64,000 nt of DNA from a virus (taxonomy: Duplodnaviria > Caudoviricetes), in the IMG/VR virus record IMGVR_UViG_3300030055_000003; one strand, written 5' to 3'. Both the position numbers and the translations under genes were made by a program. Numbering within the stretch: the first letter of the stretch is position 1; every line of letters starts with the position of its first letter. Below are positions 2,999-54,284 of the stretch, piece after piece. The notes beneath the pieces were generated by a model. The model worked only from the letters and a program-made list of their open reading frames with translations. It did no database searches and was not told the origin of the DNA.

Positions 2999-3050
2999 CT
3001 TTTAAAATCTCCTTTTTATTATATTATATTAATTTATTAACCTCTTATTT

Positions 3051-15659: not shown

Positions 15660-16938
15660 TTATATTTTAATTTCTGTTACTTCATCTTTAATTTCTATTT
15701 CTTTATCCTTATTAAAATCGTAATGTGTTGTGCTATTCATTGTAATTTTACTTTGAAAATAGAATTTTTCATTACAATTATCTGTTAAACATCTAGCTAC
15801 AAATTCTACATATTTTTGACTTTCTATTTCTACTAACTTGTAATCATTAGTTAATTGATAGTTGCATTGTTCACATCTTGGACAGTAGATTTTGTTTTCT
15901 TTTAGAATTGCTTTAAACATTTTGTTTTGCTTCCTTCTTTCTTAACTACATAATAATGTAACTGTAAGTTGCTTACCTTGATTATTTCTATAATAGTAAT
16001 AGGTATTTAAATAATCTATTTCTACATTGTATTCTTCAAATCCTAAGTCTTGTAATTCTTTAAATTTTAAGTTCATTTCTTTTATACTTTCTTCTTCCCA
16101 ATCACGGTATATGTAATCACCTTTATTTTGATCTATGAAAATATTCATTTATTAATTTATCTCCTTTATTCTTTATTTTTTAAACTATAGTGGGTTGTTC
16201 ATTTATTGTAAACATAACATCAGATAACATATCATGTTTTGCTAACTTTTCATCATCTGATATTGCTTGATACAACACCATGTCATAATATTTTCTTAAT
16301 TCATCTTTAAGTTTATCTGCATCTATTAATCTCATTCTATATTTTTCTCCTTTTTATATATTATTTAATTTATTTAACTAGTTAAAATTCGACATTTAAC
16401 TAGATTTGTTCAGATTCAATTAATGTCTTACATATCTTTCTTATTTCCAATTCTAAACCTTTTTCATTATTTATCTTTTCATAAAATTGTTCTTTATTAA
16501 TTTTTAATTCTTCCAACAGAATATTTTCAAATATTATATGTATATCATTTGTTTTAGTATCCAAGTACACTTCAAATAGTTTAACTTTATTTTCTTGTAA
16601 CATCTTTTATTTCTCCTTTAATTATATTAATTTATTTACTTTTTTATGTATCCACAGTCACAACCATATTTATACATGGTTTCATATACTTCTCTTCCTT
16701 GCATCTCTCCTCTTGGCTCGTCCCATTTATCAAGAAGAATTAAGCTTTCGCCACAGCTAGGACATCTATCAGTTCTGTCAGCTAGTGAGTTCTTATCTTC
16801 TTCTAATTTATCGGCTAGTTCTTTAGGATTTTTACGAATATCTGAAACTAATATATTCAAATCTTGTATTGTTTCACTTACTTCATGATTATTCCTATTT
16901 ATCATTTGTATTAATTCATATGTATCTGTATTTATCAA
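15660..16938 (-). CDS. small hypothetical proteins (15660 zinc ribbon, 15942, 16180-16335 MRLIDAD family, 16400, 16636 zinc ribbon)
   Basis: ORF track plus a hand-translated 51-aa MRLIDADKLK.. ORF; CPRCEQC and CPSCG..CDCG motifs. Confidence 0.6.
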
Positions 16939-16973
16939 TTTCTTATCACCTCTTTCCTTTATTGGTTAATCTT

Positions 16974-17002
16974 AGTTTACTACTTACAAAGTTATTTGTC
17001 AA
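16974..17002 (-). promoter_or_regulatory. sigmaA-type promoter
   Basis: TTGACA (17002-16997), 17 bp, TAAACT. Confidence 0.6.
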
Positions 17003-17071
17003 CTTAATTCTATTAATTTATTTAAGTTTATATAATTTAAGCTAACAAGATTTTGTTTCCTGTTAGCTTTA

Positions 17072-17100
17072 ATATTAGCATTATTGGATTGTTATGTCAA
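17072..17100 (-). promoter_or_regulatory. sigmaA-type promoter
   Basis: TTGACA (17100-17095), 17 bp, TAATAT; inverted repeat 17039-17069 immediately downstream. Confidence 0.6.
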
Positions 17101-17124
17101 TAGTTTGTTTATAGTTTTGTTAAT

Positions 17125-19194
17125 TTATTGTTTAATTGATAGAACTTTTGCTGAGGTTACTTTCCAGTTCTCCTTTTTTGATTTAAAAACTGTAACCCCT
17201 TGGGTTGAACGTGATGATTTTGCATTTACATTAGATGTATTAATGACTTTCACTTTGTTAAATGAATCAGTTAATTCTATTTCTACATCATCTGTTATTT
17301 GAACAATCAATAAAGGTAATCCATTCTCACTACTAGTCAAACAATTGGACAACTTAGTTCTATTGGTTTTCGTCTCATAACTTGAAAGATTAACCTTAGC
17401 TATTTTACCTGAATCATAGACTATAACTACATAGCCTTTATAATTATTTGTACATAACATTCCTATAATTGATTCATCATTAGATAGTCCTAACATAGTA
17501 GGAAGATATATGCCTAATTGTGATGGCTTAGATTCAGATATATCTGATAAGTTTAACATATAAGCATCACCTTTATTTGATATAAATATTACCTTACCTT
17601 TATTTGAGCATTGAATGGTACTAATGACTTCATCGTTTTCTTTTAATTTTTGATTATCTGCATCTGCAAATCTTCTTGTTTTCTTATAATACATACTATT
17701 TGTTAAAATATTTGTAGTTGTAAAATCTTCAATTAAATCCCTATTATCTATTTTAATGACTTTATCTTCATATAGGATATCTGTTTTTCTAGTTTGATTA
17801 TACTTCTTTTTAACTTCGTCAAGTTGTTCAATGATAATGTTATTTATATTTTCTTCTAAAGATAAGGTACTAGATATATTTTCTATTTCTTTAGATATAT
17901 TATCAACATCTTTTATTCTATTATTTATATAACCTTTATTAATATTTAATAATTTAATAGATACAACATATTCTGCTTGTTCTTTATCTAAATTAAATTC
18001 ATGCATAACATTATTAGTTGCGTCATCATCATTTTTTGAATTTCTTATCACCTCTAAAACTCTATCTAAATCTACCAATATTGATTTCAAGCCAGTCAAT
18101 TTATGTAATCTATCATTTAATTTATCATAATCAAATTGTAATTCGTTTTTAATACATACTTGTCTATGATAAATCCATTTATTAAAAATATCTTGTAATG
18201 ATACTAATACTGGAGTTTTTCCATCTAAGTCAAGTATTGTAAAATTACAAGCAAACTTACTTTCATAGGATGTAAATTTTCTTAATTTTTGAATTACTGT
18301 CTCAATATCTGCATTCTTTTTTAAATATAATTCTAGTTTTAGACCATCTTTATCTGAACCATTGTGATAATCAGTTAATTCTTTAGAGAATTTGTCTATG
18401 TTATTTTCTAGTTCATCTTCTATATTTTCAATATAAGTAGTATAAGGAATTTCATAAATTGTAATTGTATTAGTATCTTTGTCATATTTATATTTTCCAA
18501 GTATAGTAAATGACCCATTTCCAGTTGTATAAATTTTATCAAATATGTTTTTGTCATAAATAATTTGACCACCACTAGGTAAATCAGGGACTTTTATTAA
18601 CTCAATTGATTTATTTATATCTTTTGTTTTTATATATGATGTTATACTACTACAAACATCTTCCATATTATGAGAAGGCATTCTATTTGCTTCTGCAACT
18701 GCAATACTTATTCTCAAATTGGTTAGTATATTAGGTATTTTAGATGGTAGGAATACGGGTTCTTTTTCAGTGGCATCATAATTCCATTTCATTGGAACTG
18801 CATTTTTATTTATCCCTTCCAACATGTTTTCAGCATATGTATCTAGCTTGCATTCTATATATCTAGGAGCTGAACCTTTACCATCTCTAGAATTCTTATT
18901 TCCATAACTTCCTTTAGGGACTAAATATTTGTTTAATGAATAATTATTTCCTAGATTCTTCATAACTCCATAAAGCGGAGCATCTCCTAATGTATAATAA
19001 TTAAATATAGCACCACCAGCTTTTAACATTTTATAAAATTGTTTATCGCTTGTCATTCCTGCTTTTTTCATCCCCCAAATAACTTGTCTCTGAGAAACTA
19101 ATAATCCATCTATTGATGGCAAATTATTAATTATTACAGGTGCAGTAAAATCTAACATTTCGGTTTGTAAAACTTCTACTATTCCTTTTTTCAT
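17125..19194 (-). CDS. gyrA: type IIA topoisomerase subunit A (GyrA/ParC-like)
   Basis: LPSIDGL..QRQ, GSYG, SAPRYIECKL (catalytic Tyr), PVFLPSKIPNILTN, MPSHN, DLPSGG, IYEIPY; shortened beta-pinwheel CTD with no GyrA-box seen. Confidence 0.92.
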   Translation of the reverse strand: MKKGIVEVLQTEMLDFTAPVIINNLPSIDGLLVSQRQVIWGMKKAGMTSDKQFYKMLKAGGAIFNYYTLGDAPLYGVMKNLGNNYSLNKYLVPKGSYGNKNSRDGKGSAPRYIECKLDTYAENMLEGINKNAVPMKWNYDATEKEPVFLPSKIPNILTNLRISIAVAEANRMPSHNMEDVCSSITSYIKTKDINKSIELIKVPDLPSGGQIIYDKNIFDKIYTTGNGSFTILGKYKYDKDTNTITIYEIPYTTYIENIEDELENNIDKFSKELTDYHNGSDKDGLKLELYLKKNADIETVIQKLRKFTSYESKFACNFTILDLDGKTPVLVSLQDIFNKWIYHRQVCIKNELQFDYDKLNDRLHKLTGLKSILVDLDRVLEVIRNSKNDDDATNNVMHEFNLDKEQAEYVVSIKLLNINKGYINNRIKDVDNISKEIENISSTLSLEENINNIIIEQLDEVKKKYNQTRKTDILYEDKVIKIDNRDLIEDFTTTNILTNSMYYKKTRRFADADNQKLKENDEVISTIQCSNKGKVIFISNKGDAYMLNLSDISESKPSQLGIYLPTMLGLSNDESIIGMLCTNNYKGYVVIVYDSGKIAKVNLSSYETKTNRTKLSNCLTSSENGLPLLIVQITDDVEIELTDSFNKVKVINTSNVNAKSSRSTQGVTVFKSKKENWKVTSAKVLSIKQ

Positions 19195-24083: not shown

Positions 24084-27000
24084 TTTCGCTCTCCAATCTA
24101 TCTATTTTTCTTTCTAGTTCGTCATTATAACTATTAGCATCGTCTAGTTCAGCTTCAAGTTCCTCTATTCTAATAACACTTCCATCTACATTATTAAAAC
24201 TATCTTCAAGCAACTCAAATATTTCTTTATCTATGTACTCTTTAATTTGTGGCAATATATTTTGCTTTTCATAAATTGTAACTGTTTGTCCATTCTCCAA
24301 TGTTATAACCATATTTACTCGCCCTCCTTATTTTTAACTATTGGTCGTTCTTTAAATATATCATTTAACATTTGTGTGGCTTCTTCATATGAATAATTAT
24401 ATTCTCTACACCACTTATAGATAACTTCGTTTAATTCATTTATTAATTCTTCTTTGCTAGTTCTATATTTCATTATTACCCTCCTCACTTATTTTTCTGA
24501 TACCTAAATCATTGTTTTCTTTTATAAATTCAGATTTACCACCTAATAATATCGCTCCTGTATATATTTGACCTTTTAATAAGTCATCTATCATATTTTC
24601 TATTCTATTAATAACTTCTTTATGATCTTCATCATTAGTAAATCCAAAATTTAAACTTAAATTAAATCCTATTATTTTGTTGTTATTCATTTGTGTATCA
24701 TCTCCTTAATATTACAATTTCTTTAACATCATCAAAATCGATTTCCATTTCTGAATTTTCTCTATTCAAATAAATTGTACTTTCATCTGAAAAGTTATAG
24801 TCACCAATTAATATTTCATCATTATGTAAGTATATTTTTATGGTATCTCCTTCGTTAATAATTAAATCATTAAATTTTAAAGTCCATATTGTTTTTAAAT
24901 TCATTATTACCAATCCTTCCTTATATTCTATTTTTGATATCTTTTAATTCTTCTTCTATAAATTTTACTCTTGCTTGTAAGTTTTCTTTTCTCTTTTGTT
25001 CAGAATATACAATAGATAAGTTATGAGCCTCCAATTCTGATTGCTTAAATTCATCTACTAAAATTTTATCAATTCCTTCTGATATGTAAAACTCACTATC
25101 ACAACAATTGCAGATTGCACAATGTTTTTGAAAGTCGTCATATAATACCGTTTCATCTTCTATACCTTTGTATTTGTTTATTTTATAATTATTAAATTTT
25201 ATACCTTCTTCTATACTTTGAACCAACTTGTTTTTATACTTTTCTTTAAATATTGTATGATTTAATTTATCTTTAATTTTAAAGCTAATATCTACTAATA
25301 ATATTGGAATAAATATTATTAAAATCATGAATATAATCATAAATAATATTATCAGTAATTCATTCATATTCAATTATCACCCTTTCTTAATTACATTAAT
25401 TCGTTATATTCATTTAAAATCCAAGTTTTATTTGGACTATGGTTTATCTTTAAAATCATCACAAGTAAAACCCCACCCACATGAACATTTATGTAATTTA
25501 CACCAACCACCCTCTATATAATATGGATAATTTTTAATAAAATTTTTACATCCTTCACATTCTCCTTCAAAACCTTGTAATGGTTCTGAAACATATATCC
25601 CATCATGTGTCTTTATTAGATTAATATTTTCCTTTTTAGGTAATGGATTATCTTCTAACCATTTAGCTTGAGTTTCTTTTTCTTCTTTAGTTGAAAAAAA
25701 TGCTTTTCTAAAATTTGCAAACATAATTTCACTTCCTTCCATAAAATTATCTTACCATAGATTTTTAATTAATTCAATATGTTTCTATTAATTTATTTAG
25801 ATTTATATAAGATCTTTATAACAATTTTATAATATAATCTAATGAAAAATCCCACTATATCATCAAAGAACCATTGTATTTTAGTAATAATCTTTTTATA
25901 CCAAGGTAAACTATTATAATATTCATAAATTAAATCCCATGCAGATTTCATATTATTTAATTGTTCTTGCCCTCTTTTACTTCTAGTAACTTCACTAGTA
26001 TCTATAGTTTCAATTGTTGAGCCATTTTTGAGTTCTATTTTATTCATTATTTTCACTCTCCATTCTAAATATTTCATTGTAAATATTAACATTATCATTA
26101 CACGTAAATACATCTATAATTTTGCTCTCGCCATTACTAAATTTAACTCTCATTTGATTAAATTTAAAATCATAACCTTCATAAATTTCAATAGGTAATC
26201 CATACATTGTATTAGGATAACTTTTAAATTTAGTATTATCAATAGTAGGTATTTTCTCCAATAATACTTTTAATGCAAATGTCCCTATTTCTATTTTATT
26301 GGCTACTGGCGGTAATTGATTTAACTTTTCTGCCAATTTATCTAAATCATCTAATGTTATTGGTTTTGACATTGAAGTACAACTAGCAAACTTATTTTTT
26401 CCTGTAAGAATTGCTTTTGCTAATATATCTTTTATTTGTGATTCATTTAATTCTTCAGATTCAGTATTAAAATAATAATTAGGTTTATAACCTTTAAAGA
26501 AAGAATTAGTATATTCTTCATCATCGCCTAAAATATATTTATAAGCTTCTATTCTATCTTCTTTAGTTAATGCAATCTTATTTAAATCTTTATTCATTAT
26601 TTATCAACTCCCTTAAAGTAACTGTATTCTTCAAATATTTTATCAGATTCTATTCTTTTACCATCTACAAATAATCCACCTTTTCCCTTTTCTACTTTTT
26701 CATATTTGAAATTACATTCTTTTAAAATATCTTCGAAATCTTCATCAGTTAAATTGTTAAATATACTTTTATATTTTTCATTATCATCCATTTTTTACAT
26801 CCCCTTTAATTATATTATATTCTATTAATTTATTAACTCCTGTTAAAATCATGTTTTTATGTGGTTTTTAACCTAGTATTCATGCCATTTACAAGGTGCT
26901 ATTTTTGTATGTAATAATTATTAATTGTCACATTAGACTTACTTTCTTCTTTAACCACTTTTACATTGTCTAAATTTAATATCAAATCAATTGAATCTCT

Positions 27001-27636: not shown

Positions 27637-28170
27637 TTAATTTGTTTTTAACTTATTTCTTAAATAATAGTAAAAGGTATTATAAATATATTTTCCACTA
27701 TGTTCTTTATCTGTAAAAAAGAATGGGCAATTATATTGTTCTTGAAAAGAATGTAATGAGCCAACAAAAGATTCTTTAGGAAAATCAGTTTTATATTTAC
27801 CATCACAGACATTAGAGTAATTAGTATCTTCTATTAATAACCTTAATGCTCCATTACTTCTTTCAAACTCCCTTTTAAACCTTTCTCTTCCTTGTGTAAA
27901 ATTGCCACTAATTTCTTCAGCATGAGCCTTTCGTTCAATAGCTATTTCGTCAGTAAAATATAAATCTTCAAGAATATCTAATGATTCATTCTGTGGTATC
28001 ATAAATGAATAATCCCCAAATGATAAAGTATAATCTATATAATTTATTTTATTAGATTTTAACCACATTTTAATGTGCGAGTTAACCTTTTCCCTGCTGT
28101 CTACTAATACAGTTATTGAGTTAAGAATTTGTTTTACTTCTTTATCTTTATATACTCTATTAAATTTCAT
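27637..28170 (-). CDS. ERCC4/XPF-family nuclease (probable junction resolvase)
   Basis: VLVDSRE, GDYS, IAIERK, LLIE motifs. Confidence 0.88.
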   Translation of the reverse strand: MKFNRVYKDKEVKQILNSITVLVDSREKVNSHIKMWLKSNKINYIDYTLSFGDYSFMIPQNESLDILEDLYFTDEIAIERKAHAEEISGNFTQGRERFKREFERSNGALRLLIEDTNYSNVCDGKYKTDFPKESFVGSLHSFQEQYNCPFFFTDKEHSGKYIYNTFYYYLRNKLKTN

Positions 28171-31100
28171 CTAGCACTTCCTCCATACTTGGTATTACTG
28201 AATAATTTGTAATATGCCACTCGATTTTATTCTCATCGATTTCAAACACTGGTTTTACATTACCCTTTTTATCAGTCTTTTCTCCAACCTTTTTCCATCC
28301 AAATTTCTTTTCCATAGAATGAATATAGATTACATCATTAACATTTAATTCACCATCATTATTCCATAACTTCTTATTAATTTTACATTTACATGTAACA
28401 CCATTATTTAAGCAGTATGTATTTACTATGGGAGTGTATTTAGTATTAATATCAGTAATCAAAGCATATCTTTTTTCGATTTTTTCATTTTTATAATCTA
28501 TATAACCTAAAATTTCGTTTTGGAAAGCAAGTTTTTCTTTAAAACTGATATCTGTATTAGGGATATTGACTACTTGATCTACTAATAATTTATAAGTATC
28601 AACTTCTTTAAATACCTTTTCTGTCTCTTTGTTTGCATACTTTCTAATTAAATCTATATTTTCATTGCTTAATTTGCTTTTGTTAAACTGTTTTTTGCCA
28701 TATAACTTATTATATAAATTAACTATAGTTAATAACTTTTGTGATTTGCCAAAGCAATCAAAATAATCTAATTTAATAAGTATTTCTAATTGACGTGAGT
28801 TGCAAGATGTATTTTCTTTAATATCTAATAATAAATCTAAAAAACTATTATACTTATTATTTTGAGATAATTCATATACCTCATCTGCCACCTTATTATT
28901 AAGATTTTTAATTGAGCCTACTCCTTTATATATACTATTTGTTTCCTTTGACATGAAATAACTAGCTTTCGCATAACCAAACTTAGGTGATGATATACTT
29001 ATTCCTTTACTATTAGCATATTTGATTATACTGATAGTCTTCTCTTCTTTATCTTTATTAATATTTAATGCTGTAGTTATAAATTCTAATGGATGATAAT
29101 ATCTTAGGTATCCAGCAATATATCCAATATATGTATATGGAACAGCATGATTTTCACTAAAAAGATAATCCGATGCGTCAGTTATTACTTGTATAAAATT
29201 TATAATTAATTTTTTAGATTCTTCTTCGTCTACATTGTATTTTTCTTTCATAGTTTTAATGAAACCACTTGTAATTTTAGGAATAAATTTTTCTGTACCT
29301 GTTTTCTTAGCAAATCCACGCCTTACAATATCAGCCTCACCCATTGTATATCCACAAAATTCATGTAAGAAATTCATAATTTGTTCCTGATATACTAAGT
29401 AACCCATTGTTGGTGCTAAAAATTTATTTAATGCTTCATGTCCATTATCCCTAAATTCACCATTAGATAATGCATTACGATAACTTGCACCAGCAGGTCT
29501 AATAGCACCATTTCCCATTGAAACTAAATCTACATATCTAAAATTTGGATTAAATTGTTTTATTTTATTTAATGTTTTTTCACTCAATAATGTTTTTATA
29601 AAAGCACCTGCACTATCTGATTCCCATTGAAATATCAAAGTATTATCTTTAGCCATTGATTGCCACACATCTTCTTCGTCTGGTGTATTTTCGGGTGTTA
29701 ATCTTTCTATATCAGCCAATTCACAAGTTTCATTTATTATTTGTATATTGTCTAACCCTAATAAATCTAACTTGACAAAGTTTTGTGCATCAATAGCCTT
29801 CATACTTATCATTGATACTGGATGTGAACAAGTTGATATGCTACATAATCCGACTGAACTATCTAATGGGATAGGGCTACAAATTTGACCACAAGGATGT
29901 GTCCCTATAGAAACTATAGTACCATTAATTATATCAACATATTCGAATACTTTTGGATATTCTTTCCTCATTTTATCTTCATTATCTTCTATATTTTCAC
30001 ATATATAATTAGAAATTTTTAAATAATCATCCATATAGTCATGAACTTTTTTACTAGTACTATCTGTTAAAGTCCCATACCCTTCAACATCTCTATTACT
30101 AGCTTCTTCCAATTCTTTAGGTAAATCTTTTTTATATATAGCTCTGCATACATCTCTGATACTACCTTTTAAAGCAACCGTATTAAATGTTATTATGTCT
30201 GCACAATATAAGTCTTTTTTACTATATATATAATTTTTTACTAGTTCTCTGTGATTTGGAGACCAATCTGTATCTATATCTGCTAAACTTACTCTTTCAG
30301 TATTCATAAATCTTTCAAAATTCATTTTATGTTTAATTGAATCTATATCAGTAATACCTATTAAATAAGCTATTTCACTTCCAGAACATGAACCTCTTGA
30401 ATACCCAGCAAATATATTATTACTTCTAGCCCATGTTTTAATGTTTTCATCTAATAATAAAAAGTCTACTGCACCATTATGTATGTATGTTTCTAACTCG
30501 TGTTGTATTCTAGGAATGTATTCAGTTTTATAATTAGGTAATTTATTTATTCCTTTTGATAATGTACCCTCATTGATTTTTTGTTTTAATACATCTAAAG
30601 AATTATCATATAATTTAGGATATTTATATGATTTATCAATTTTAAATTCTTCAACTCTATCATATAATCTATTAGTATTTTCTAAAGCTTCATATATTTC
30701 TTCGCCTGACATTATATTTTGCTTTTTAAATAATTCAACTAATTCGTCATATGATTTTAATGTTAAATCCCAACCGTCTTCATTATCGAAGAAAATGCCT
30801 TTTGATTTTTGTAATATTTCTCTACCTTTTGCATGTTTGCTGTTTAATGCGTGAGTATCAGTAGCTACAAGTAATGGAATATTATATTTTTTATGTAAAT
30901 CACAAAGATATTTATTATAAGAAATTTGATCTTTTACTAAGTGGTGCTGAATCTCTAAATAGCATCTATTTGAATTATCAACTAAAAATTCAATAAATCT
31001 ATCTTTTAATTTATCATTTCCTTTACTTAATATTCCACCTAAACACGCTGTACTAACTAATATTTTACTACTTGTACTTATTAACTCTTCAAATGTTATC

Positions 31101-31474
31101 CTTGGTGTATAGTAAAAATGTCCATCTTCTCTATTAAAAGCTTTTGAAACTAAACTATTTAATTCTTCAAATGATTCATAATCAGTAGCATATAAGCAAA
31201 CATGGTAATTATCTCTGATTTTTTCATCTAAAGACTCTGTAACATATGCTTCTATAGAGTGAACATATTTGAAGCCATTGTCTTCACATTCACATTTCTT
31301 TTTATACCATTCAAATGTTGAACCATGCTCTGTAAAACAAATTCCTTGTATCCCTAATGCTTTATCATTTTTAATTTGTTTTATGTAATCTGAATATTTT
31401 GTTACTGAATCTATATTAGTTATCCCATTACTATACATTGTGTGACAATGAGTTAATGTATATGTGTTACTCAT
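28160..31474 (-). CDS. dnaE: DNA polymerase III alpha subunit (family C)
   Basis: PHP domain HCHT, TEHG, DTH; SRGSCSGS, LADIDTD, GTHPCG, KLDLLGL, VYQEQIM, FSENHAVPY, GVGSIK. Confidence 0.96.
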   Translation of the reverse strand: MSNTYTLTHCHTMYSNGITNIDSVTKYSDYIKQIKNDKALGIQGICFTEHGSTFEWYKKKCECEDNGFKYVHSIEAYVTESLDEKIRDNYHVCLYATDYESFEELNSLVSKAFNREDGHFYYTPRITFEELISTSSKILVSTACLGGILSKGNDKLKDRFIEFLVDNSNRCYLEIQHHLVKDQISYNKYLCDLHKKYNIPLLVATDTHALNSKHAKGREILQKSKGIFFDNEDGWDLTLKSYDELVELFKKQNIMSGEEIYEALENTNRLYDRVEEFKIDKSYKYPKLYDNSLDVLKQKINEGTLSKGINKLPNYKTEYIPRIQHELETYIHNGAVDFLLLDENIKTWARSNNIFAGYSRGSCSGSEIAYLIGITDIDSIKHKMNFERFMNTERVSLADIDTDWSPNHRELVKNYIYSKKDLYCADIITFNTVALKGSIRDVCRAIYKKDLPKELEEASNRDVEGYGTLTDSTSKKVHDYMDDYLKISNYICENIEDNEDKMRKEYPKVFEYVDIINGTIVSIGTHPCGQICSPIPLDSSVGLCSISTCSHPVSMISMKAIDAQNFVKLDLLGLDNIQIINETCELADIERLTPENTPDEEDVWQSMAKDNTLIFQWESDSAGAFIKTLLSEKTLNKIKQFNPNFRYVDLVSMGNGAIRPAGASYRNALSNGEFRDNGHEALNKFLAPTMGYLVYQEQIMNFLHEFCGYTMGEADIVRRGFAKKTGTEKFIPKITSGFIKTMKEKYNVDEEESKKLIINFIQVITDASDYLFSENHAVPYTYIGYIAGYLRYYHPLEFITTALNINKDKEEKTISIIKYANSKGISISSPKFGYAKASYFMSKETNSIYKGVGSIKNLNNKVADEVYELSQNNKYNSFLDLLLDIKENTSCNSRQLEILIKLDYFDCFGKSQKLLTIVNLYNKLYGKKQFNKSKLSNENIDLIRKYANKETEKVFKEVDTYKLLVDQVVNIPNTDISFKEKLAFQNEILGYIDYKNEKIEKRYALITDINTKYTPIVNTYCLNNGVTCKCKINKKLWNNDGELNVNDVIYIHSMEKKFGWKKVGEKTDKKGNVKPVFEIDENKIEWHITNYSVIPSMEEVLDEI

Positions 31475-32829
31475 TTATTTTCCTCCCTATCATTCATAAA
31501 GTTTATTATTTCTTCCCCATCTTTCAGCCTATATCTTTTAATTGCATAATGTATGTATTGATAATTAAAAGATAGAATATCACAAAAATCTTTTAACAAT
31601 ATATCATTGTTATTATAATTTATATAAAATCTAAATTGTTCTTGTTTTATTTTATCATTTTCTATTATTTTACATTTTATTATATCTAAATTATTTGGAA
31701 TAATAGATGTTATAATTTCATCTAATTTCCTTGATGATTTTGCCGTAAATCTCATATATCTTTTATCGCTATTTTCTACAATTCCATCTAAATCAAACCT
31801 ATTCTTCATAATATCTATAAAGTGATATCTATCCTTTAATGGTATATCAGCTAAACATATTTCCCAATTTGAATCACCTCTATAACCATCATCTAATGCA
31901 AATATACTTAATGAAAATTCATTGAGATTATCAATTAAATTACGTTTAGACATTTCTCTATATTGTATAAAACAATTATGTATTCTAGAAGATATTCTAT
32001 AGTGTGGTTGACAAAGATATTTCGAATCTGTTCCAAAATTATGATATGCTTCTTTATAATAAGTTGGTGATATATTCATAAAATCCTTCATTAATTCATA
32101 TTTCCAAAACAAATAATCTTTTTGATTTTCCGCATGACTGACTATAAATATAGGTTGTGTTTCTCTTTTATCAACATGACCGTCTCCCAACAAAGAGCCA
32201 ATAACTAAATCTTTTTGTATATCATTTAATTGTTTATGTATTTTTCTATATTCTTGGGTTAATTTATGTTTTTCACAACACCATTTCTCTATAACTCTTT
32301 TACTGCACTTCGCTTCTTTAGCCATCTCTTCATGATTTAATCCTTCTGTCATATATTTTTGATAACACCAATCATAATCTTGATATATAGCTTTAAAATA
32401 AATACTATTAATTGAATTAACATTAAAATTATATTCAAATTTAATATTTTCTATCTTTTCAACTTTGTCTAAGAATTTTCTATAAACACCTAATTGTTTA
32501 CAAATATCCTCTTTCCCAAAACATTTATCTGGATTTTCTTTTATATATTTAATAAGTAATTCTAAATTATATTCATTTTGATTTAATTTATTTTTCCAAA
32601 CTATTTTATTCTCGTTGGTTTTATTTCTGCTAACCTCAGTTCTTTCTTCTGAAGGACATGCAATAGCTCCTTTTTTAAAATGTGAATATTGTTTATTTTT
32701 TACTATATAATTATTATATTCTGGAAACATAACATCTATATCACTTGTTTTTCTATACTCTACTATTATCATTTTACTTCCAAAGTTATTTAATCTTTCT
32801 TCCCCAACTCTATCTGCCACATATTTCAC
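31471..32829 (-). CDS. free-standing LAGLIDADG endonuclease with mosaic N-terminal domains
   Basis: VIGSLLGDG and FALDDGY motifs; N-terminal RVGEERLNNFGSKMII module seen on phage homing nucleases; sits between recJ and dnaE and overlaps the dnaE start. Confidence 0.82.
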   Translation of the reverse strand: MKYVADRVGEERLNNFGSKMIIVEYRKTSDIDVMFPEYNNYIVKNKQYSHFKKGAIACPSEERTEVSRNKTNENKIVWKNKLNQNEYNLELLIKYIKENPDKCFGKEDICKQLGVYRKFLDKVEKIENIKFEYNFNVNSINSIYFKAIYQDYDWCYQKYMTEGLNHEEMAKEAKCSKRVIEKWCCEKHKLTQEYRKIHKQLNDIQKDLVIGSLLGDGHVDKRETQPIFIVSHAENQKDYLFWKYELMKDFMNISPTYYKEAYHNFGTDSKYLCQPHYRISSRIHNCFIQYREMSKRNLIDNLNEFSLSIFALDDGYRGDSNWEICLADIPLKDRYHFIDIMKNRFDLDGIVENSDKRYMRFTAKSSRKLDEIITSIIPNNLDIIKCKIIENDKIKQEQFRFYINYNNNDILLKDFCDILSFNYQYIHYAIKRYRLKDGEEIINFMNDREENK

Positions 32830-47690: not shown

Positions 47691-49157
47691 TTAACAAGCC
47701 TGTACTAATTCTTGATTATGTAATCCGTTTAATTTGTTTTTAATATCATATTTTATGTATTCTTCAGGGGTTAAATCTTTTATGTATTTAAATGTATATC
47801 CTTTATATGTTTTACATTTTCCTTTACAATTTCTTGAAATCATACTACTATTGAATTTTACCCCAAATAATGCTTCACCTTTATCAACTAAATCACTAGC
47901 AGATTTAAATACCATTCCATTTGTTAAACATATTGTTTCCTTACTATTTCCATCTCCTTTGTATGTACATAATCCTCTTTCTGTTCCTCTTGTTAAATAA
48001 CTTCTAATGGTTCTTGGAGACATTTTTATATTTTTTGCTATATCATTTACATTATGTATTCCTGATTCCCACATTGTCCAAGCCATCTTAACAAAATTTA
48101 ATAAAGCAAATTCTTCAATTTTGTTCCAATCTATATTATTTAAATCAAACAATTTATTTAATTTATTATTATTAACTATATTCTGTCTTATGTAGTTAAA
48201 TCTGTTTTCTATATTAAGATAATCACAATCAATTCTTATAACTTCAATTCCTTGTTTTTCAGCTAATTTATCCTTTTCATCATCTATAAATTGACTTTTT
48301 TCCTTGGTTTGTCCACTCATAGAATTATCATGATTGTGAAATCCACCGTCCATCTCTAATATATATTTCTTATTGTTTAATTCGAAATAAAAATCATATG
48401 ACTTAGGTTTAATCCATTCTGGAGAGTATTCTGATACAAAATCTATATTCAATTGTTCCAATAAATTGAAGGCAAACTTATTTGGATATTTCACACTATT
48501 CCCACATGAGCATCCTATAGAGTGATATTTATAAATGTTAGCTATAATTACTTTAGTACTTTTAACTCTACCACAAACAGGACATATTGGATAAATCTTT
48601 TTACTGCTTGATTTAGTATATTTCTTAGCCTCATCATATCCACCTTGAAAGTAAGGTATCATCCAAGGTGCAGTTGTAGGTATGTCTTTTATACCTTCTA
48701 CTACTATTTGATTTTCACAACATGCACAATTTTGTCCTTTTAATAAATTACTTTCTAATATCCATCCTTCATATCCATCTTTATTACAATGATATTTGTA
48801 ATATTTTTTATTTCCATATGTATTACATCTTTTTCTATATTCTCTATCTATAATTATTAAATCCCTTCTTTCACTTTTAAATGTTGTATCTATATTTACT
48901 TTAAAATCTGATGTGTATATACCTAGCAATTTTCCCAAGTGACATTTTATAAATGCAGAAGTTGTTATTTTAAAAGGTGGATTATTCAAATATTTAATAA
49001 ATATATATGGCATTTTGTACGATATAATTTTAACTTCAAAATTTATATTATCGTAAACTCCTTTTACATTATAATCTATACTCTTTTTCCAATTTATGTA
49101 ACCTTTATTATTTTCTTTTTCATACCCAGGTAAATCGTCTAAAAACATTTTTCTCAT
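47691..49157 (-). CDS. free-standing homing-type endonuclease (zinc ribbons, Vsr/DUF559-like nuclease, NUMOD1-like tail)
   Basis: CACC, ICPVCG, CSCG; YDFY..ILEMDGGFH; C-terminal ETICLTNGMVFKSA..ISRNCKGK..KGYTFKY. Confidence 0.78.
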   Translation of the reverse strand: MRKMFLDDLPGYEKENNKGYINWKKSIDYNVKGVYDNINFEVKIISYKMPYIFIKYLNNPPFKITTSAFIKCHLGKLLGIYTSDFKVNIDTTFKSERRDLIIIDREYRKRCNTYGNKKYYKYHCNKDGYEGWILESNLLKGQNCACCENQIVVEGIKDIPTTAPWMIPYFQGGYDEAKKYTKSSSKKIYPICPVCGRVKSTKVIIANIYKYHSIGCSCGNSVKYPNKFAFNLLEQLNIDFVSEYSPEWIKPKSYDFYFELNNKKYILEMDGGFHNHDNSMSGQTKEKSQFIDDEKDKLAEKQGIEVIRIDCDYLNIENRFNYIRQNIVNNNKLNKLFDLNNIDWNKIEEFALLNFVKMAWTMWESGIHNVNDIAKNIKMSPRTIRSYLTRGTERGLCTYKGDGNSKETICLTNGMVFKSASDLVDKGEALFGVKFNSSMISRNCKGKCKTYKGYTFKYIKDLTPEEYIKYDIKNKLNGLHNQELVQAC

Positions 49158-49223: not shown

Positions 49224-49246
49224 TTTAAGAGAAGCCGAAACTCCCC
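49224..49246 (-). terminator. possible terminator
   Basis: GGGGAG-TTTCGG-CTTCTC followed by TTAAATTT just after the 49256 stop. Confidence 0.5.
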
Positions 49247-49255
49247 ATGGTCATA

Positions 49256-49681
49256 TTAAGCATTCATATTAAAGAACGCATACATTAAACACTCATATTC
49301 ATAGTTCTCACTATTAATTTTATTGTCTCTTATATAATCTACTACCACTTCATTACCTTCTTTAAAGAATCTGTCATATATTTCTCTGCCTTGTCCTACT
49401 AACCAACTTGCAAAATCTAAATATACCGCATCTTTTGACTCTTGAATAAATCCACCATTTACTTTAAATAGTTCTTTAAATTCTTTACTACCAATGTACT
49501 CATTAACTATACAATTAAATTCTTGTAATAACATTTCAATATCATCAATTGAATAATTTTTCTTTAAGATAGTATGTAGATTATCAAATTGCTTTTGTGA
49601 ATTAAAATTAATACCTTTCTTTGATTCCTCTAATACCTTCCATAATTCTTTTCTAAAACATTTATCTAATATCATAATCAT
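49256..49681 (-). CDS. DUF4240-like protein
   Basis: LWKVLE..YLDFASWLVGQGREIYD..YECLMY pattern. Confidence 0.6.
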   Translation of the reverse strand: MIMILDKCFRKELWKVLEESKKGINFNSQKQFDNLHTILKKNYSIDDIEMLLQEFNCIVNEYIGSKEFKELFKVNGGFIQESKDAVYLDFASWLVGQGREIYDRFFKEGNEVVVDYIRDNKINSENYEYECLMYAFFNMNA

Positions 49682-49708
49682 TCTCCTTTTTGTTATATTA
49701 GTTTATTT

Positions 49709-51052
49709 TTACAATTCAAACATATCCATTCCCATAATAAATCTTTGTATTTTTTCAGTTTCTATACTCATAGGTGTCAAGATATTGTTAATTTCATCTT
49801 GTGTGAAATCACCATCACATAAAACAACTCTACCTGTACAACCTAAATTACGTCTTGTAAATTTATCATCAAATTTCCTTATTTTTATTTCAGCTCCACT
49901 ATAAGTTAATGTAGCATTTGCATAACTAAAATTACTAGCATCTATTGTTGATTTATCAAATTGACATCTACATGAAATATCCTCAAATATTTCTTTTACA
50001 TTATCTTTTTTGGTTACTATTAAGATGACATTATTATAATTCAATTTTAAATCGTATTCTAATGCCTTTTTTACTACAAAATCCTTTAATTTATTTTCTA
50101 CAAATGATTTTAAATCCACTTCTCCTTTATTAATTGTCATTATTTTTTCTAATTCATTAAAGCAATTAAATTTACGTTCTATTTTCATAGTATTAGTTTC
50201 TTTAATTACTATTAGACTAAAACTTCTATTGACTTCTCTTTGAGTAGTTACTTTAAATTCTTCAGAATCAAATAAATCTTTAATATTTTGTAAATTTTCT
50301 TTTATTACATCATTATATTCTTTTACCTTGTTATTTCTATCTTTTTGTTCTTTTATTATTGCACTTTTAAAATCAATAGCATTACTAAAATCAGCACTTT
50401 CTTCATATAAATTTAATTTCCTTCTTAATCCTCTAACTGGTTTTTCTTCTTTAAACATATCTTTATATTCATTACAAATATCAAACCATTTGTTAAATTC
50501 TACATCTCCAAGTCTTTCTTTTGTATCTTTTATTTGTTCTTTTGTCAATATTCCACACTCTTCTAATTTTTTCAAACCTATTACATGATAACTAATATCT
50601 TTTCTACAATTGAACAAATTCATTATAGGATATTTGATGGTAAATACAGACACATATTTCTTAGCCTTAATATCTAATTGAGGTAATCCATCATCAAACA
50701 AAACCAAGTCAATAATTTCATCTTCATCAAATCTTTCATCCTTATCATATGCACTTATCGTTTCTCCTGTATTAAATTCAATAAATAACTTCTTTCTGGA
50801 GAAATTATAATACTTAATTGATTCTCTTATATCATCGTCTAAAGCAAATATTTCTTCAAAATGATCTTTTAAGATTCTTAATTGTCCCATATTACTATTT
50901 ATGTATAAGACTGTTTTTGGTTTATCATGTAATACTTTATTAGCTAATAGGAAAGTTTTACTACCTCTTCGGCTTATATTAGCCATTATTATTTTTGAGT
51001 CATCTGCTACAATGTCAGTTTGCCATTCATTTAATATCATTTTCTTTTCCAT
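49709..51052 (-). CDS. degenerate terminase-large-subunit ATPase-like protein (multiple partial repeats, no nuclease domain)
   Basis: Q motif LNEWQ, Walker-A-like SRRGSKTFL, IEFNTGETI, Walker-B-like LVLFDDG; later RGLRRKLNLYEE and GCTGRVVLCDGDF..ILTPM. Confidence 0.6.
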   Translation of the reverse strand: MEKKMILNEWQTDIVADDSKIIMANISRRGSKTFLLANKVLHDKPKTVLYINSNMGQLRILKDHFEEIFALDDDIRESIKYYNFSRKKLFIEFNTGETISAYDKDERFDEDEIIDLVLFDDGLPQLDIKAKKYVSVFTIKYPIMNLFNCRKDISYHVIGLKKLEECGILTKEQIKDTKERLGDVEFNKWFDICNEYKDMFKEEKPVRGLRRKLNLYEESADFSNAIDFKSAIIKEQKDRNNKVKEYNDVIKENLQNIKDLFDSEEFKVTTQREVNRSFSLIVIKETNTMKIERKFNCFNELEKIMTINKGEVDLKSFVENKLKDFVVKKALEYDLKLNYNNVILIVTKKDNVKEIFEDISCRCQFDKSTIDASNFSYANATLTYSGAEIKIRKFDDKFTRRNLGCTGRVVLCDGDFTQDEINNILTPMSIETEKIQRFIMGMDMFEL

Positions 51053-51072
51053 TTTATCTCTCCTTTAATTTT

Positions 51073-51849
51073 TTAATCATAGTAATTTTCATATGATATA
51101 TCTTTATAATATTTGCTAATAGTGTCTCTAGATGTCTTCATATCTCCTACACATATTATGCTTCTTATTCCATCAATATCTGCTACTTCTCCGAGAATAT
51201 AATCTTGAGTAATTTCAATATCGTTATCTTCCTCATAATGCTCAATTGACATATACTCACTTAAATCTAGGTTTAATGCTTTTCCAAAACAATCTATATG
51301 TTCTCGTTCCTCATACAATTTATTATTCATTATAAGAAAAGCAGTTATTCTTTGTTCTTCCCAATCATAATCTTTTGGCTGATTCATAAATATAACCTTC
51401 TTTACAACTTATTTATCATTAATTTATTTTACATACTAATAAAAAGACACTAAAAATTAATCTAATTCCCTTATAATTAATATATAATTTTACATTCCCT
51501 TTAGAGTTATGATTTGATTATCTAATATCTTATCACCAGTAGTTTTATCTACTACAGTTAAATAGAATGTAGTCAAAGTATTAATATTAAGATTTTTAAT
51601 AGTAAAACTAGAATCTGTTTTCTTGACTATTGATATATTATTTTTACTCAACAGGGTTTGTCCAACTGAATCTAATTTATATTCAATAACTAAATCATTT
51701 TGAACAATACCGTTAACATATCTAAACGCTGAAATTTGACTACCTTCTTTTACTCTATAAACATATCCATTACTTGTTTGAATTTTGTCCAATATACTGC
51801 TAAAAGCGTCAACTACATTATGATTGACTTTAGCTAATTTTGTATTCAT
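51073..51849 (-). CDS. two hypothetical proteins (51490-51849 is beta-rich, Ig-like)
   Basis: ORF track; beta-strand pattern. Confidence 0.5.
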
Positions 51850-51877
51850 ATCTTATTACTCCTTCATTATTTATTTC

Positions 51878-54211
51878 TTATAATCTAATTCCTAATTTAC
51901 TTAATGTCCAAAACACGGTGTTAATTTTAGAGCAATCAATATCATTTAACTTTCTTTTGAATCTGATATTATTCCCCCTTTGAGTTACTTCAATTTCTAA
52001 ATTACTTAACTCAACACATAATTCTTTTATTAACTCTATATATTCTGGAGTTTGATTATCACACATAAATATTTTATATAACTTTTCTTTATTTTGAACT
52101 ATTCCTATACTATTTGTAATTGCTTCTCTGATATCTTCTTTGTTTATTTCAATAATATCAGTAAAATCTTTTGCATAAAAATAATCTAATATTCCAATTC
52201 TCGAAGCTGGATTAGGTATTATTAACTTGCAATTTTCATATTTAGAAACCTCATTTATAAGTTGATCTGCAATTTCATCTAGTTTATTTGAAGATATATT
52301 TATACTCTTAACTATTTTAATTCCCACATCTTTAGTTTCTTCAAAAAGCATTGCGTATTTTTCATCATTGCTATCATATCCCATATCAAAAAGCATATAA
52401 TTATTTGTTGCTTTATTTAATTCATTTAATCTTTTTCTTTCATCTCTTTGTATTTCTCTATCAATTTTATCCATACATCCACTTGTTCTGCCTGCCATGC
52501 TTAAAAATTCTGGTGTTGCTTTTTCATATTCTAATCCGTCATTTATACTTTTTAAAAACATATCTGAATTTTCTTTAGTAACTAAAAACTGAACTAGTAA
52601 TGATGTACAATCTGAACAAATATGATGTATTTTATCACCTAAATCTATTGTATCTTCCGATGGTTTTTCTTTTCCACAACAACTACATTTGGTATTAGTT
52701 GGAGTCAAATCCCCACTAAATCTTAATACATTAACCTTTAATTCTTCTCTATTTTTCCAAGCCATTTTACATTCCTCCTTCATTATTTTGTTCCATTTCA
52801 ATAAAAACACTGCCTTTCCAATCTATAGGTTTGAAATCATTATGTAGTTCTACAATTTTTCTTAATATTACATTAGTCGTGATATACTGTATTTCATTTT
52901 CTTCAATAGATTCAATCGCTTCCTTAACAATAGTCTTCCATTCATCAAAGGAATATTCCTTTTCTGATTGAAGTCCATCTCTTTGAATATCTTTTCTAGC
53001 TTCTTGACCTGTTATTCTAAAATCCAAACTATAATTATACATTTGTCTTCTCTCTCCTTTTTATTAATTTATTTTTATACTTTCAAATTATCATAGTAGT
53101 TTTTAATTTTTCCCATTTCTTCATTTTCTAATCTTTCTAGTTCTTTTAATTCTGAGTCCAAATTATTCATCTTTTCTTTATGTTCTTTATCAGTTTTATC
53201 ATTTAATTCTTTTAAATCTTGATTTATCCATTTAATAAAATTTTTAAAGTATTCTTCATATTTAGATACAATATCTTTAAAATTATCTAACTTGATAAAT
53301 AAAGGTTCTTTATAAAAATCTATATTTGTTCCCATAGGTTTTAAAAATTCTTCAATTTCATCCTGTGAAAAACCATCATCATAAATGATAACGTGTCCTC
53401 TATTAGCTTTTTGGCTTAACTCCCACTTATGTATATCAATAATAAACTGACCTCCAATAATCCTACCATAATCGTTTAAAGCAATCACTTTAGCATAATA
53501 TCTAACTTTTCTAGCCAAATCCTCAGTCACTTCTTTAATGTTATCTTCTTTAGTAAATACTTTAATTCTATATATTTTCATTATTTTATTCACCTCACAT
53601 GAGTATTTTATAATTAGTTTTCTATCATCTTCAGAAATATCATTCCATAAGGTTTTTATTTCTCTCATTAGTTGTGAATGTACTTTTGGTTCATCATCTG
53701 TAATAAAACCAAGTTCTCTTAATTTTAAAAGTAATTCATTTGTTTTATGTTCTGAAAATAATTGTGCATAAGATTCTGATACTGCACTACTAATAATTAA
53801 CATTCTCCATTCTTCACCTAAATCAATGTATCTATATTCATTTACCATTATTATTCTCCTTTATAATTTTAATTTATTAACACTTTCTAACTTATTTAGT
53901 TCTTCAATTTTTTCATCCAAAAGTGAATTTATTGACTCTTCATACTTTTGTCGTTCTTCTTGATTTATGTATTTTTTCTCTTTTAATAAGCCATAACAAG
54001 TTTCTATTTCTTTGTCTCTTAATTTAAATAATTCATTTTGTATAATTAATGACTTATATTCATGTACAGGCATTTCACCATTATAATTAGAAAAACTATC
54101 TACATCTATTTCTAACTTTTTTAATTTCTCATCTAATTCTTTTTCGCTATATCCTGAATAATCTTCGTAAAAATGAAGTTTGGCTCTTAATCCTCTTTGC
54201 ATTTTAATCAA
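51878..54211 (-). CDS. four hypothetical proteins (51878, 52767, 53075, 53861), three carrying terminase-like fragments
   Basis: 51878: MLFDMGYD..LIIPNPASRIGILDYF; 53075: NRGHVIIYDDGF..FLKPM; 53861: QRGLRAKLHFYED. Confidence 0.5.
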
Positions 54212-54255: not shown

Positions 54256-54284
54256 AGTTTACTACCATAATTTATATATGTCAA
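54256..54284 (-). promoter_or_regulatory. sigmaA-type promoter heading the terminase-fragment cluster
   Basis: TTGACA (54284-54279), 17 bp, TAAACT. Confidence 0.65.

Follow-up and report, generated by a model that had tools for sequence, protein, structure and literature searches.

The gene cluster at positions 49709-54211 of a 64,000-nucleotide stretch of viral DNA (the window; IMG/VR record IMGVR_UViG_3300030055_000003) encodes domains derived from the large terminase subunit (TerL). That these domains are encoded away from packaging genes, and that their active sites depart from the canonical ones, is supported by structure comparison, profile searches and genome context. The terminase look-alikes constitute a separate, uncatalogued family, and such proteins outside packaging modules have been noticed only recently. 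The preferred reading, to which a probability of roughly 0.5 is given, is that the cluster encodes TerL-derived accessory proteins retained for a role other than packaging. A preliminary description of this DNA had taken the cluster for an operon of catalytically dead terminase fragments, possibly acting as decoys against terminase-sensing immunity. Its observation is largely right, and all of its open reading frames (ORFs) and quoted motifs lie on the minus strand where it placed them; the decoy interpretation, a hypothesis, is somewhat disfavoured by the closest precedent. The phage that carries the cluster is large, SPbeta-like and from peat. Within a 141-kb virus record of 57% estimated completeness, the window corresponds to positions 71600-135599 read on the minus strand; it has a G+C content of 25%, and one strand holds nearly all of its genes.

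The terminase likeness resides in the following features, all on the minus strand.

50453..51052, minus strand: TerL-ATPase-like domain, residues 1-200 of a 447-amino-acid (aa) protein (ORF 49709-51052), recognised by AlphaFold2 (AF2) modelling, Foldseek, VIA-align (VIA) and profiles.
51878..52810, minus strand: ORF of 310 aa, or 295 aa (51878-52765) from the gene callers' start, with an N-terminal Cys-rich putative zinc ribbon and helices.
~51881-52417, minus strand: TerL-nuclease-like domain of RNase H fold, the C-terminal 180 residues of ORF 51878, recognised by an AF2 model, Foldseek and VIA.
51490..51849, minus strand: protein of 119 aa; its N-terminal 35 residues correspond to the stretch that, in full-length relatives, lies between the ATPase-like domain and the nuclease-like one (tblastn with residues 263-294 of the relative P0004, 51% identity).

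The ATPase-like domain carries a Q motif (W10-Q11), a Walker A motif (S27-R28-R-G30-S31-K32-T33), a Walker B motif (L-F-D120-D121) and the pair S135/T138. The predicted local distance difference test score (pLDDT) of its AF2 model is 91-98 up to residue 140 and 77-98 for residues 141-200 (means over 10-residue blocks). Structure searches give a clear similarity to TerL. In Foldseek, the top 32 matches of the 447-aa model in the PDB are all large terminases, and VIA-align of model residues 1-195 yields TerL in each of the 15 best PDB rows (Z 13-14.6, root-mean-square deviation ~3 Å, 177-190 aligned residues), followed by NAT10-type helicase domains at Z ~12. The neighbours found by the two methods include the TerL ATPase domains of D6E, P74-26, HK97, Sf6 and T4, and those in the ESM Atlas and BFVD are likewise terminases. 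Sequence identity to TerL structures is ~10-15% (Foldseek, VIA), and the domain is compact, its 195 residues falling ~50-60 short of a normal TerL ATPase domain (VIA).

Sequence comparison leads to the same proteins. A profile of 62 family sequences matches T4 gp17 among PDB sequences (E 5e-6), in an alignment that begins with the Q motif and Walker A and extends to Walker B; it also matches SPbeta YonF (E 8e-8, in a small search). The breadth of this profile was required for the gp17 match, since a narrower 12-sequence profile of the N-terminal domain found none among PDB sequences. Scans of all cluster ORFs with Pfam, PHROGs, NCBIfam and PADLOC gave nothing significant except a DUF4240 protein and an endonuclease, both described below. 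Window proteins matched no Pfam terminase family at E values up to 1; weak matches to Terminase_6N came from two of the 62 family members (best 4.8e-5).

The residues expected to bind nucleotide are widely kept in the family: Q11 in 61 of 62 members, R28 in 60, T/S33 in 56, K32 in 55 and the Walker B Asp (D120) in 45. The next position, that of the catalytic Glu in TerL, holds Asp in 31 members, Glu in 13, Asn in 9 and Gly in 6. D120-D121 of the window protein align on D255-E256 of gp17, with D121 replacing the catalytic Glu; the loss of the Walker B Glu reported earlier is thus borne out here, and a second Walker B motif proposed further along the protein, in what is called module X below, found no support. 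Six of the 19 members of 248-323 aa retain Asp-Glu (alignment A7), and in a few members the Walker A Lys or Thr is no longer present. In lambda terminase, all substitutions of the catalytic Glu are lethal, and E179D retains weak ATPase activity and slow translocation (PMC6379665). Since the binding residues are kept and the equivalent lambda mutant is weakly active, the 447-aa protein is better described as a putative nucleotide-binding protein with impaired hydrolysis than as dead. The phrase "catalytically dead" is therefore an overstatement, the change from Glu to Asp being conservative and about one-fifth of the members keeping Asp-Glu.

The second terminase-like element is the C-terminal domain of ORF 51878. 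Its AF2 model (me395eccd5a6d) is of low confidence, with a mean pLDDT of 51 and 60-88 in the core, and shows the RNase H order beta-beta-beta-alpha-beta-alpha-beta. The top PDB matches in Foldseek are the TerL nucleases of G20c, RB49/T4, SPP1 and E217 (E 6e-5), and the D6E and human cytomegalovirus terminase nucleases are also among the best. VIA of model residues 117-294 returns TerL nucleases in all 17 best rows, 14 of them at Z 10-10.8 and the next three at 8.5-8.7, over ~150 aligned residues with a deviation of 3.4-3.8. The last 170 residues of the ORF are 36% identical (E 7e-19) to the C-terminal domain of P0004, a relative of 465 aa. In a six-sequence alignment (A5), the beta-1 Asp is invariant and the last (third) acidic position is variable; the fourth strand carries an invariant Ile-Ile-Pro at the place of Glu458 in T4, a placement made by strand order on the low-confidence model. 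One of the three acidic positions of the nuclease would thus be Pro in the ORF 51878 family, if the expected position is the right one. A MAFFT alignment made for a full-length relative (A4) was dropped, its nuclease-like rows being misplaced. Both halves of a terminase are represented in the cluster, since a TerL ATPase fold and a TerL nuclease fold are found and some relatives join them in one chain.

The genomic setting is that of replication rather than packaging. On the same strand, 3' of the cluster, lie genes for a DnaB helicase, a RecJ-like DHH protein, DNA polymerase III alpha, gyrase B and A, a ribonucleotide reductase and a Dam methylase, in an order that matches the SPbeta replication arm from yorI to yorL. 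Homologues of SPbeta YonF (terminase), YonE (portal) and YonB are absent from the entire 141-kb record, which also contains no match to PF03237. The replication-gene surroundings, together with a record lacking homologues of YonF, YonE and YonB, place the cluster far from packaging genes, in agreement with the preliminary description. The stretch is not an assembly accident, since its 4.6 kb recur in near-identical form in at least 24 peat metagenome runs; among the runs listed as containing it, none was an RNA run.

The cluster also includes proteins and modules without recognisable terminase likeness.

53861..54211, minus strand: protein of 116 aa with the motif RGLRAKLHFYED at its start and a predicted coiled coil behind it; paralogous to the 447-aa protein's linker region.
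53075..53848, minus strand: protein of 257 aa with a helical N-terminal part, module X (residues ~95-190) and a C-terminal coiled coil; assigned by paralogy to the C-terminal half of the 447-aa protein.
52767..53042, minus strand: conserved small protein of 91 aa; an 81% identical copy lies just 5' of a stand-alone nuclease-like gene in contig L013, and the ratio of nonsynonymous to synonymous substitution rates (dN/dS) is 0.21.
51073..51387, minus strand: conserved small acidic protein of 104 aa; an 86% identical copy lies 5' of a relative's gene in contig L004, dN/dS 0.23.
50399..50443, minus strand: conserved K-P-V-RGLRRKLNLYEE motif within a linker predicted to be disordered, the point at which the C-terminal modules of relatives diverge (alignment, pLDDT).
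49709..50371, minus strand: C-terminal half of the 447-aa protein, with a long helix, a three-stranded sheet with helices (228-338), module X (343-429) and a tail (secondary structure, pLDDT).

The repetition of motifs between these ORFs, noted earlier by eye, reflects true paralogy. Residues 343-429 of the 447-aa protein are 28% identical to residues 95-173 of ORF 53075 (E 8e-8), and its residues 204-223 share RGLRxKLxxYE with the N-terminus of ORF 53861 (10 of 20 identical, E 1e-3, BLASTP). The resemblance of all four main ORFs to TerL, also proposed by eye, holds for the N-terminal domain of the 447-aa protein and the C-terminal domain of ORF 51878 (Foldseek, VIA); no TerL likeness was detected in ORF 53861 or ORF 53075, and hhalign of module X against the ATPase-like and nuclease-like profiles revealed no relationship (probability below 1%). 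The term "fragments" accordingly fits two of the four ORFs and not the other two. The strand-helix order of module X loosely recalls the RNase H fold in the AF2 model of the whole 447-aa protein, at a pLDDT of ~55. Residues 228-335 of this C-terminal half reach ~80; its feature matches in the Atlas are weak (0.86-0.91), and N-domain matches fill the lists of whole-model structure searches.

In the linker motif, R207, G208, R210, N214 and E218 are invariant among 12 relatives, and pLDDT is below 50 at residues 207-222. The pattern RGLR(R/A)K.N..(E/D)E occurs in the window at 50399-50443 and 54146-54205 and in L016:6636-7958, and forms the extreme N-terminus of ORF 53861 and of 57-64 aa paralogues; in L016 it follows an unrelated N-domain. 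It may serve as a short motif for binding or as a site of processing. ORF 53861 has a 77%-identical paralogue of 64 aa elsewhere in the genome and an 83%-identical copy in contig L012. A single TAA stop and a strong ribosome-binding site separate it from ORF 53075; readthrough of this stop, or a recent nonsense mutation, was considered and ruled out by the ribosome-binding site, which overlaps the stop.

Every ORF of the cluster is under purifying selection, as expected of maintained genes. A 1.8-kb intragenomic duplication of 82% nucleotide identity (window 49275-51076 against record 16601-18409, outside the window) covers the genes for the 447-aa protein and the DUF4240 protein, so that a second copy of the former, with 84% protein identity, is found 68 kb away, again beside a DUF4240 gene. 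This second copy has 539 aa, including a 90-residue N-terminal extension, and further paralogous pairs between the duplicated regions are formed by the endonuclease, ORF 47210, ORF 46424 and ORF 53861. Pairwise dN/dS is 0.21 between the two 447-aa paralogues, with similar values per domain, and 0.11-0.35 for every other cluster ORF against relatives (ORF 53861, 0.11-0.22; ORF 53075, 0.21; ORF 51878, 0.22-0.35). These values, well away from 1, answer the question of decay that the preliminary description had raised. Reading frames are intact in every relative examined, and the ribosome-binding-site junctions are conserved.

The first 220 residues of the 447-aa protein define a small family, with 12 close relatives and, at E <=1e-3, 64 representatives among 1.84 billion proteins, mostly single-domain proteins of 250-270 aa. 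Among GenBank phages, no match to the cluster came up at the DNA level, and protein searches of the same phages found one: gp59 of Geobacillus virus E3, a "hypothetical protein" of 249 aa (E 3e-75 to the family profile) encoded among thymidylate synthase and gyrase genes. This is a cultivable member of the family. In three relatives of 461-465 aa (P0004, P0006 and P0007), the ATPase-like domain continues to a C-terminal nuclease-like domain. Related contigs present the modules in other arrangements.

L003 and L015: ATPase-like and nuclease-like domains in one chain of ~465-480 aa.
L016 and L017: nuclease-like domain behind a different N-domain and the RGLR motif, immediately 5' of the ATPase-like gene.
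L013: stand-alone nuclease-like gene.
L004: free module X gene, of 109 aa.

The modules are thus fused, split and swapped among related phages. The family coexists with a canonical YonF-type terminase in contig L009, where P0021, a distant member, is found 3.4 kb upstream of genes resembling YonG and YonF. The YonF-like frame of that contig (L009:6941-8473) ends after ~243 aa and is followed by a GIY-YIG endonuclease gene, and the contig ends before the remainder; from its sequence, the gene looks like a terminase interrupted by a mobile element or intron. A separate observation concerns L012:3160-5114: this phage contig, which has an 83%-identical copy of ORF 51878, contains a gene for a Cas6-domain protein with a 433-aa gene after it, and the pair may be a phage-borne CRISPR-Cas module.

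Compared with true large terminases (T4 gp17 with its Terminase_6N domain, YonF, D6E, P74-26, Sf6, HK97), the family shares the ATPase fold, the Q motif, a Walker A with Arg and the Walker B Asp; the cluster also has a modelled RNase H-type nuclease fold, and P0004, P0006 and P0007 hold both domains in a single chain of ~465 aa. Unlike TerL, the proteins fall short of every Pfam threshold, another residue stands in for the catalytic Glu, a nuclease acidic position is apparently Pro and the ATPase domain is shorter. The two domains occupy separate genes in the window, the nuclease-like one first, in a replication arm far from portal and capsid genes. The Rhodococcus phage Whack encodes a 206-aa "AAA-ATPase" of similar size that is matched by shape only (BFVD; TM-score 0.66 by target). 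Geobacillus virus E3 gp59 is a true family member; it is annotated as hypothetical and the Whack protein as a generic ATPase, and neither has a described function.

The closest functional precedent is T4 vs.8, an early TerL-ATPase-like protein that is toxic together with EcAvs2 and is predicted to sit in the terminase pocket of this sensor (Evans et al. 2026, PMC13601566). Like the cluster proteins, it has a stand-alone TerL-ATPase-like fold of ~220 aa with Walker motifs, is encoded among early or accessory genes outside packaging, and is restricted to a lineage. No sequence relationship is detectable, hhalign with the family profiles giving E values of 0.08 and 0.82 and aligning Walker A alone. 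Unlike vs.8, most members of the cluster family have Asp or another residue at the catalytic Glu position, and the cluster adds a TerL-nuclease-like domain, extra modules, fusion, fission and swapping of these, and in-genome duplication. T4 vs.8, Ksap1 and Ksap2 are non-terminase activators of Avs2 on co-expression (PMC13601566). The function of such activators has been called an open question, and an anti-defence role has been suggested (PMC13601566).

In the preferred reading, TerL-derived proteins have been retained for a non-packaging role. Their ATPase fold keeps the residues for nucleotide binding (Q motif; Walker A Arg, Lys and Thr; Walker B Asp), with Asp replacing the catalytic Glu, and TerL-type ATPase and nuclease domains are combined with lineage-specific modules, namely the RGLR linker, a coiled coil and module X. 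Such proteins would not package DNA. Binding would most likely be their mode of action: loaded with nucleotide and shaped like TerL, they would engage whatever normally recognises terminase or DNA. They would probably be produced early, along with the replication genes beside which they are encoded. The fast turnover of their modules and their duplication within the genome point to a role in conflict between phage and host or between phages. Several points weigh against this reading. Action by binding is inferred, and early expression is deduced from position only. Slow ATP hydrolysis is possible with Asp in place of Glu, and some relatives have Asp-Glu, so that the role may be enzymatic. The nuclease-like model is of low confidence, and its catalytic site was read from a six-sequence alignment and strand order. 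No canonical terminase of the phage itself is seen in the 141-kb record, outside which its structural genes lie. A role in conflict is argued from a pattern that is not specific to it, namely turnover, duplication and the endonucleases nearby.

The first alternative is that the proteins have kept an enzymatic activity and put it to a new use, as a slow ATPase or DNA-binding motor with a nuclease-fold partner in replication, recombination or end processing, perhaps tied to the homing endonuclease. The conserved Walker A Arg/Lys/Thr and Walker B Asp, the Asp-Glu pair in 13 of 62 members, the residual ATPase and translocation of lambda E179D (PMC6379665) and the location in the replication arm beside a syntenic endonuclease are consistent with it. 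In many members, however, Asn, Gly or Ser occupies the Walker B or catalytic positions, and the Walker A Lys or Thr is missing from a few; the nuclease-like domain has its invariant Pro at the expected second acidic position, and the endonuclease synteny is confined to close relatives and so is not independent. An enzymatic role is considered unlikely.

Equally unlikely is an undescribed counter-defence or conflict class that has exapted both terminase halves. Nucleotide-loaded TerL-shaped mimics, with modules swapped beside a conserved linker motif, would here keep pace with terminase-fold sensors (Avs1-3, Upx) or with rival packaging machinery.

Interference with packaging, by poison subunits or competitors for the small terminase subunit (TerS), portal or DNA directed at co-infecting phages or satellites, or by restraint of the phage's own terminase until late, is quite unlikely. 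The TerL fold with an altered catalytic carboxylate, the crippling of lambda terminase by changes at the catalytic Glu (PMC6379665), the accessory position and the rapid turnover would all suit it. Against it, the family is very distant from real terminases, as its rarity among 1.84 billion proteins and its low identity to TerL structures indicate, and its ATPase domain lacks the ~50-60 residues by which it falls short of a normal one; at such a distance from any real terminase, co-assembly into a foreign motor ring seems unlikely.

The decoy idea of the preliminary description, in which non-activating mimics occupy or poison terminase-sensing receptors (Avs1-3, possibly Upx) before the real terminase appears, is very unlikely. 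Sensors of this kind detect the fold of the terminase, its active-site residues and the bound ATP, even where sequence identity is very low (PMC13601566). Both folds gripped by Avs3 are present in the cluster, the ATPase-like one with its nucleotide-binding residues; stand-alone TerL-ATPase-like phage proteins are predicted in the Avs2 pocket, and two domains made as separate proteins could in principle fill half-sites. Terminase look-alikes can therefore engage sensors, yet the known case, vs.8, triggers them, and the precedent cuts against a decoy: activation of Avs2, as by vs.8, Ksap1 and Ksap2 on co-expression, would be harmful to the phage if it came early. Literature searches turned up no TerL-mimic inhibitor of Avs, and nothing specific on terminase decoys or on terminase paralogues that are inactive.

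That the cluster consists of decaying, functionless relics of a duplicated or endonuclease-disrupted terminase gene is extremely improbable: TerL-derived pieces are indeed spread over several ORFs beside homing endonuclease genes, and the YonF-like frame of L009 does end before a GIY-YIG gene, but dN/dS is low in all pieces, frames and ribosome-binding-site junctions are preserved, and two paralogues are maintained.

The flanks of the cluster contain further features.

54256..54284, minus strand: promoter-like site TTGACA-17-TAAACT, 5' of the cluster (consensus scan, 10 of 12 matches).
49256..49681, minus strand: DUF4240 protein (Pfam PF14024, E 8e-8), duplicated along with the 447-aa gene.
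49229..49246, minus strand: terminator-like hairpin after the DUF4240 gene that could close the transcription unit (consensus scan).
47691..49157, minus strand: free-standing homing-endonuclease-like gene of 488 aa (phrog_4538, E 3e-45, and homing endonuclease PHROGs).

The ORFs of the cluster are spaced by 12-102 bases or overlap. The promoter proposed earlier at 54284 is not confirmed: matches of this type are rarer in the window than in shuffled sequences (68 against 89.5), and since such sites are not enriched in this AT-rich DNA, the site remains a candidate only. The hairpin is the sole terminator-like site in 10 kb, against 0.9 expected. The dyad TAAAA-N6-TTTTA has 12 sites in the window (for example at 3003, 21864, 44600 and 55217), against 2.4 expected from shuffles; none lies within the terminase-like cluster, and the nearest copy is that at 55217. 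A homing-endonuclease-like gene of PD-(D/E)xK type trails the terminase-like genes in the window and in L003, L004 and L013; these phages are close kin, so the synteny is not independent evidence. In the replication arm, a 452-aa ORF with a LAGLIDADG domain (31471-32829) overlaps the start of the 1104-aa DNA polymerase III alpha gene (28160-31474) by 4 bases; SPbeta YorL has 1305 aa, and the window polymerase may be split or intein-associated.

Similar sequence had been reported at 10775 and near 26 kb. Neither place has profile support in hidden Markov model (HMM) searches or PHROG scans, the likeness being one of short motifs, and six-frame HMM searches of the whole record detected no further copies of the cluster pieces. 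At 10775-10951 and at record positions 47765-48043 there are small paralogous ORFs (46% identity over 35 aa) with a Q-motif-like segment L-K-W-(H/Y)-Q-K; the longer ends in N-V-G-R-R, exactly at the expected start of a terminase Walker A, and both are too short for profile scoring. Window stretches 26040-26597 and 25793-26113 weakly resemble the N-terminus of YonE (30% over 56 aa; E 0.006 against a tiny database) and residues 152-176 of YonF (E 0.02), lack PHROG support and may be chance matches.

For annotation, the genes of this cluster should neither be named terminases nor serve as packaging markers. Terminase is a universal phage protein, and several bacterial immune sensors recognise its shape; why some phages carry extra terminase-ATPase look-alikes that these sensors see has been left open (PMC13601566). 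The locus contributes an uncatalogued look-alike family in large Firmicutes phages, a companion nuclease look-alike, evidence of selection and reshuffling, and a cultivable member, gp59. The ATPase-like protein alone, the nuclease-like protein alone and their natural fusions are concrete constructs for asking whether terminase sensing is triggered, evaded or blocked.

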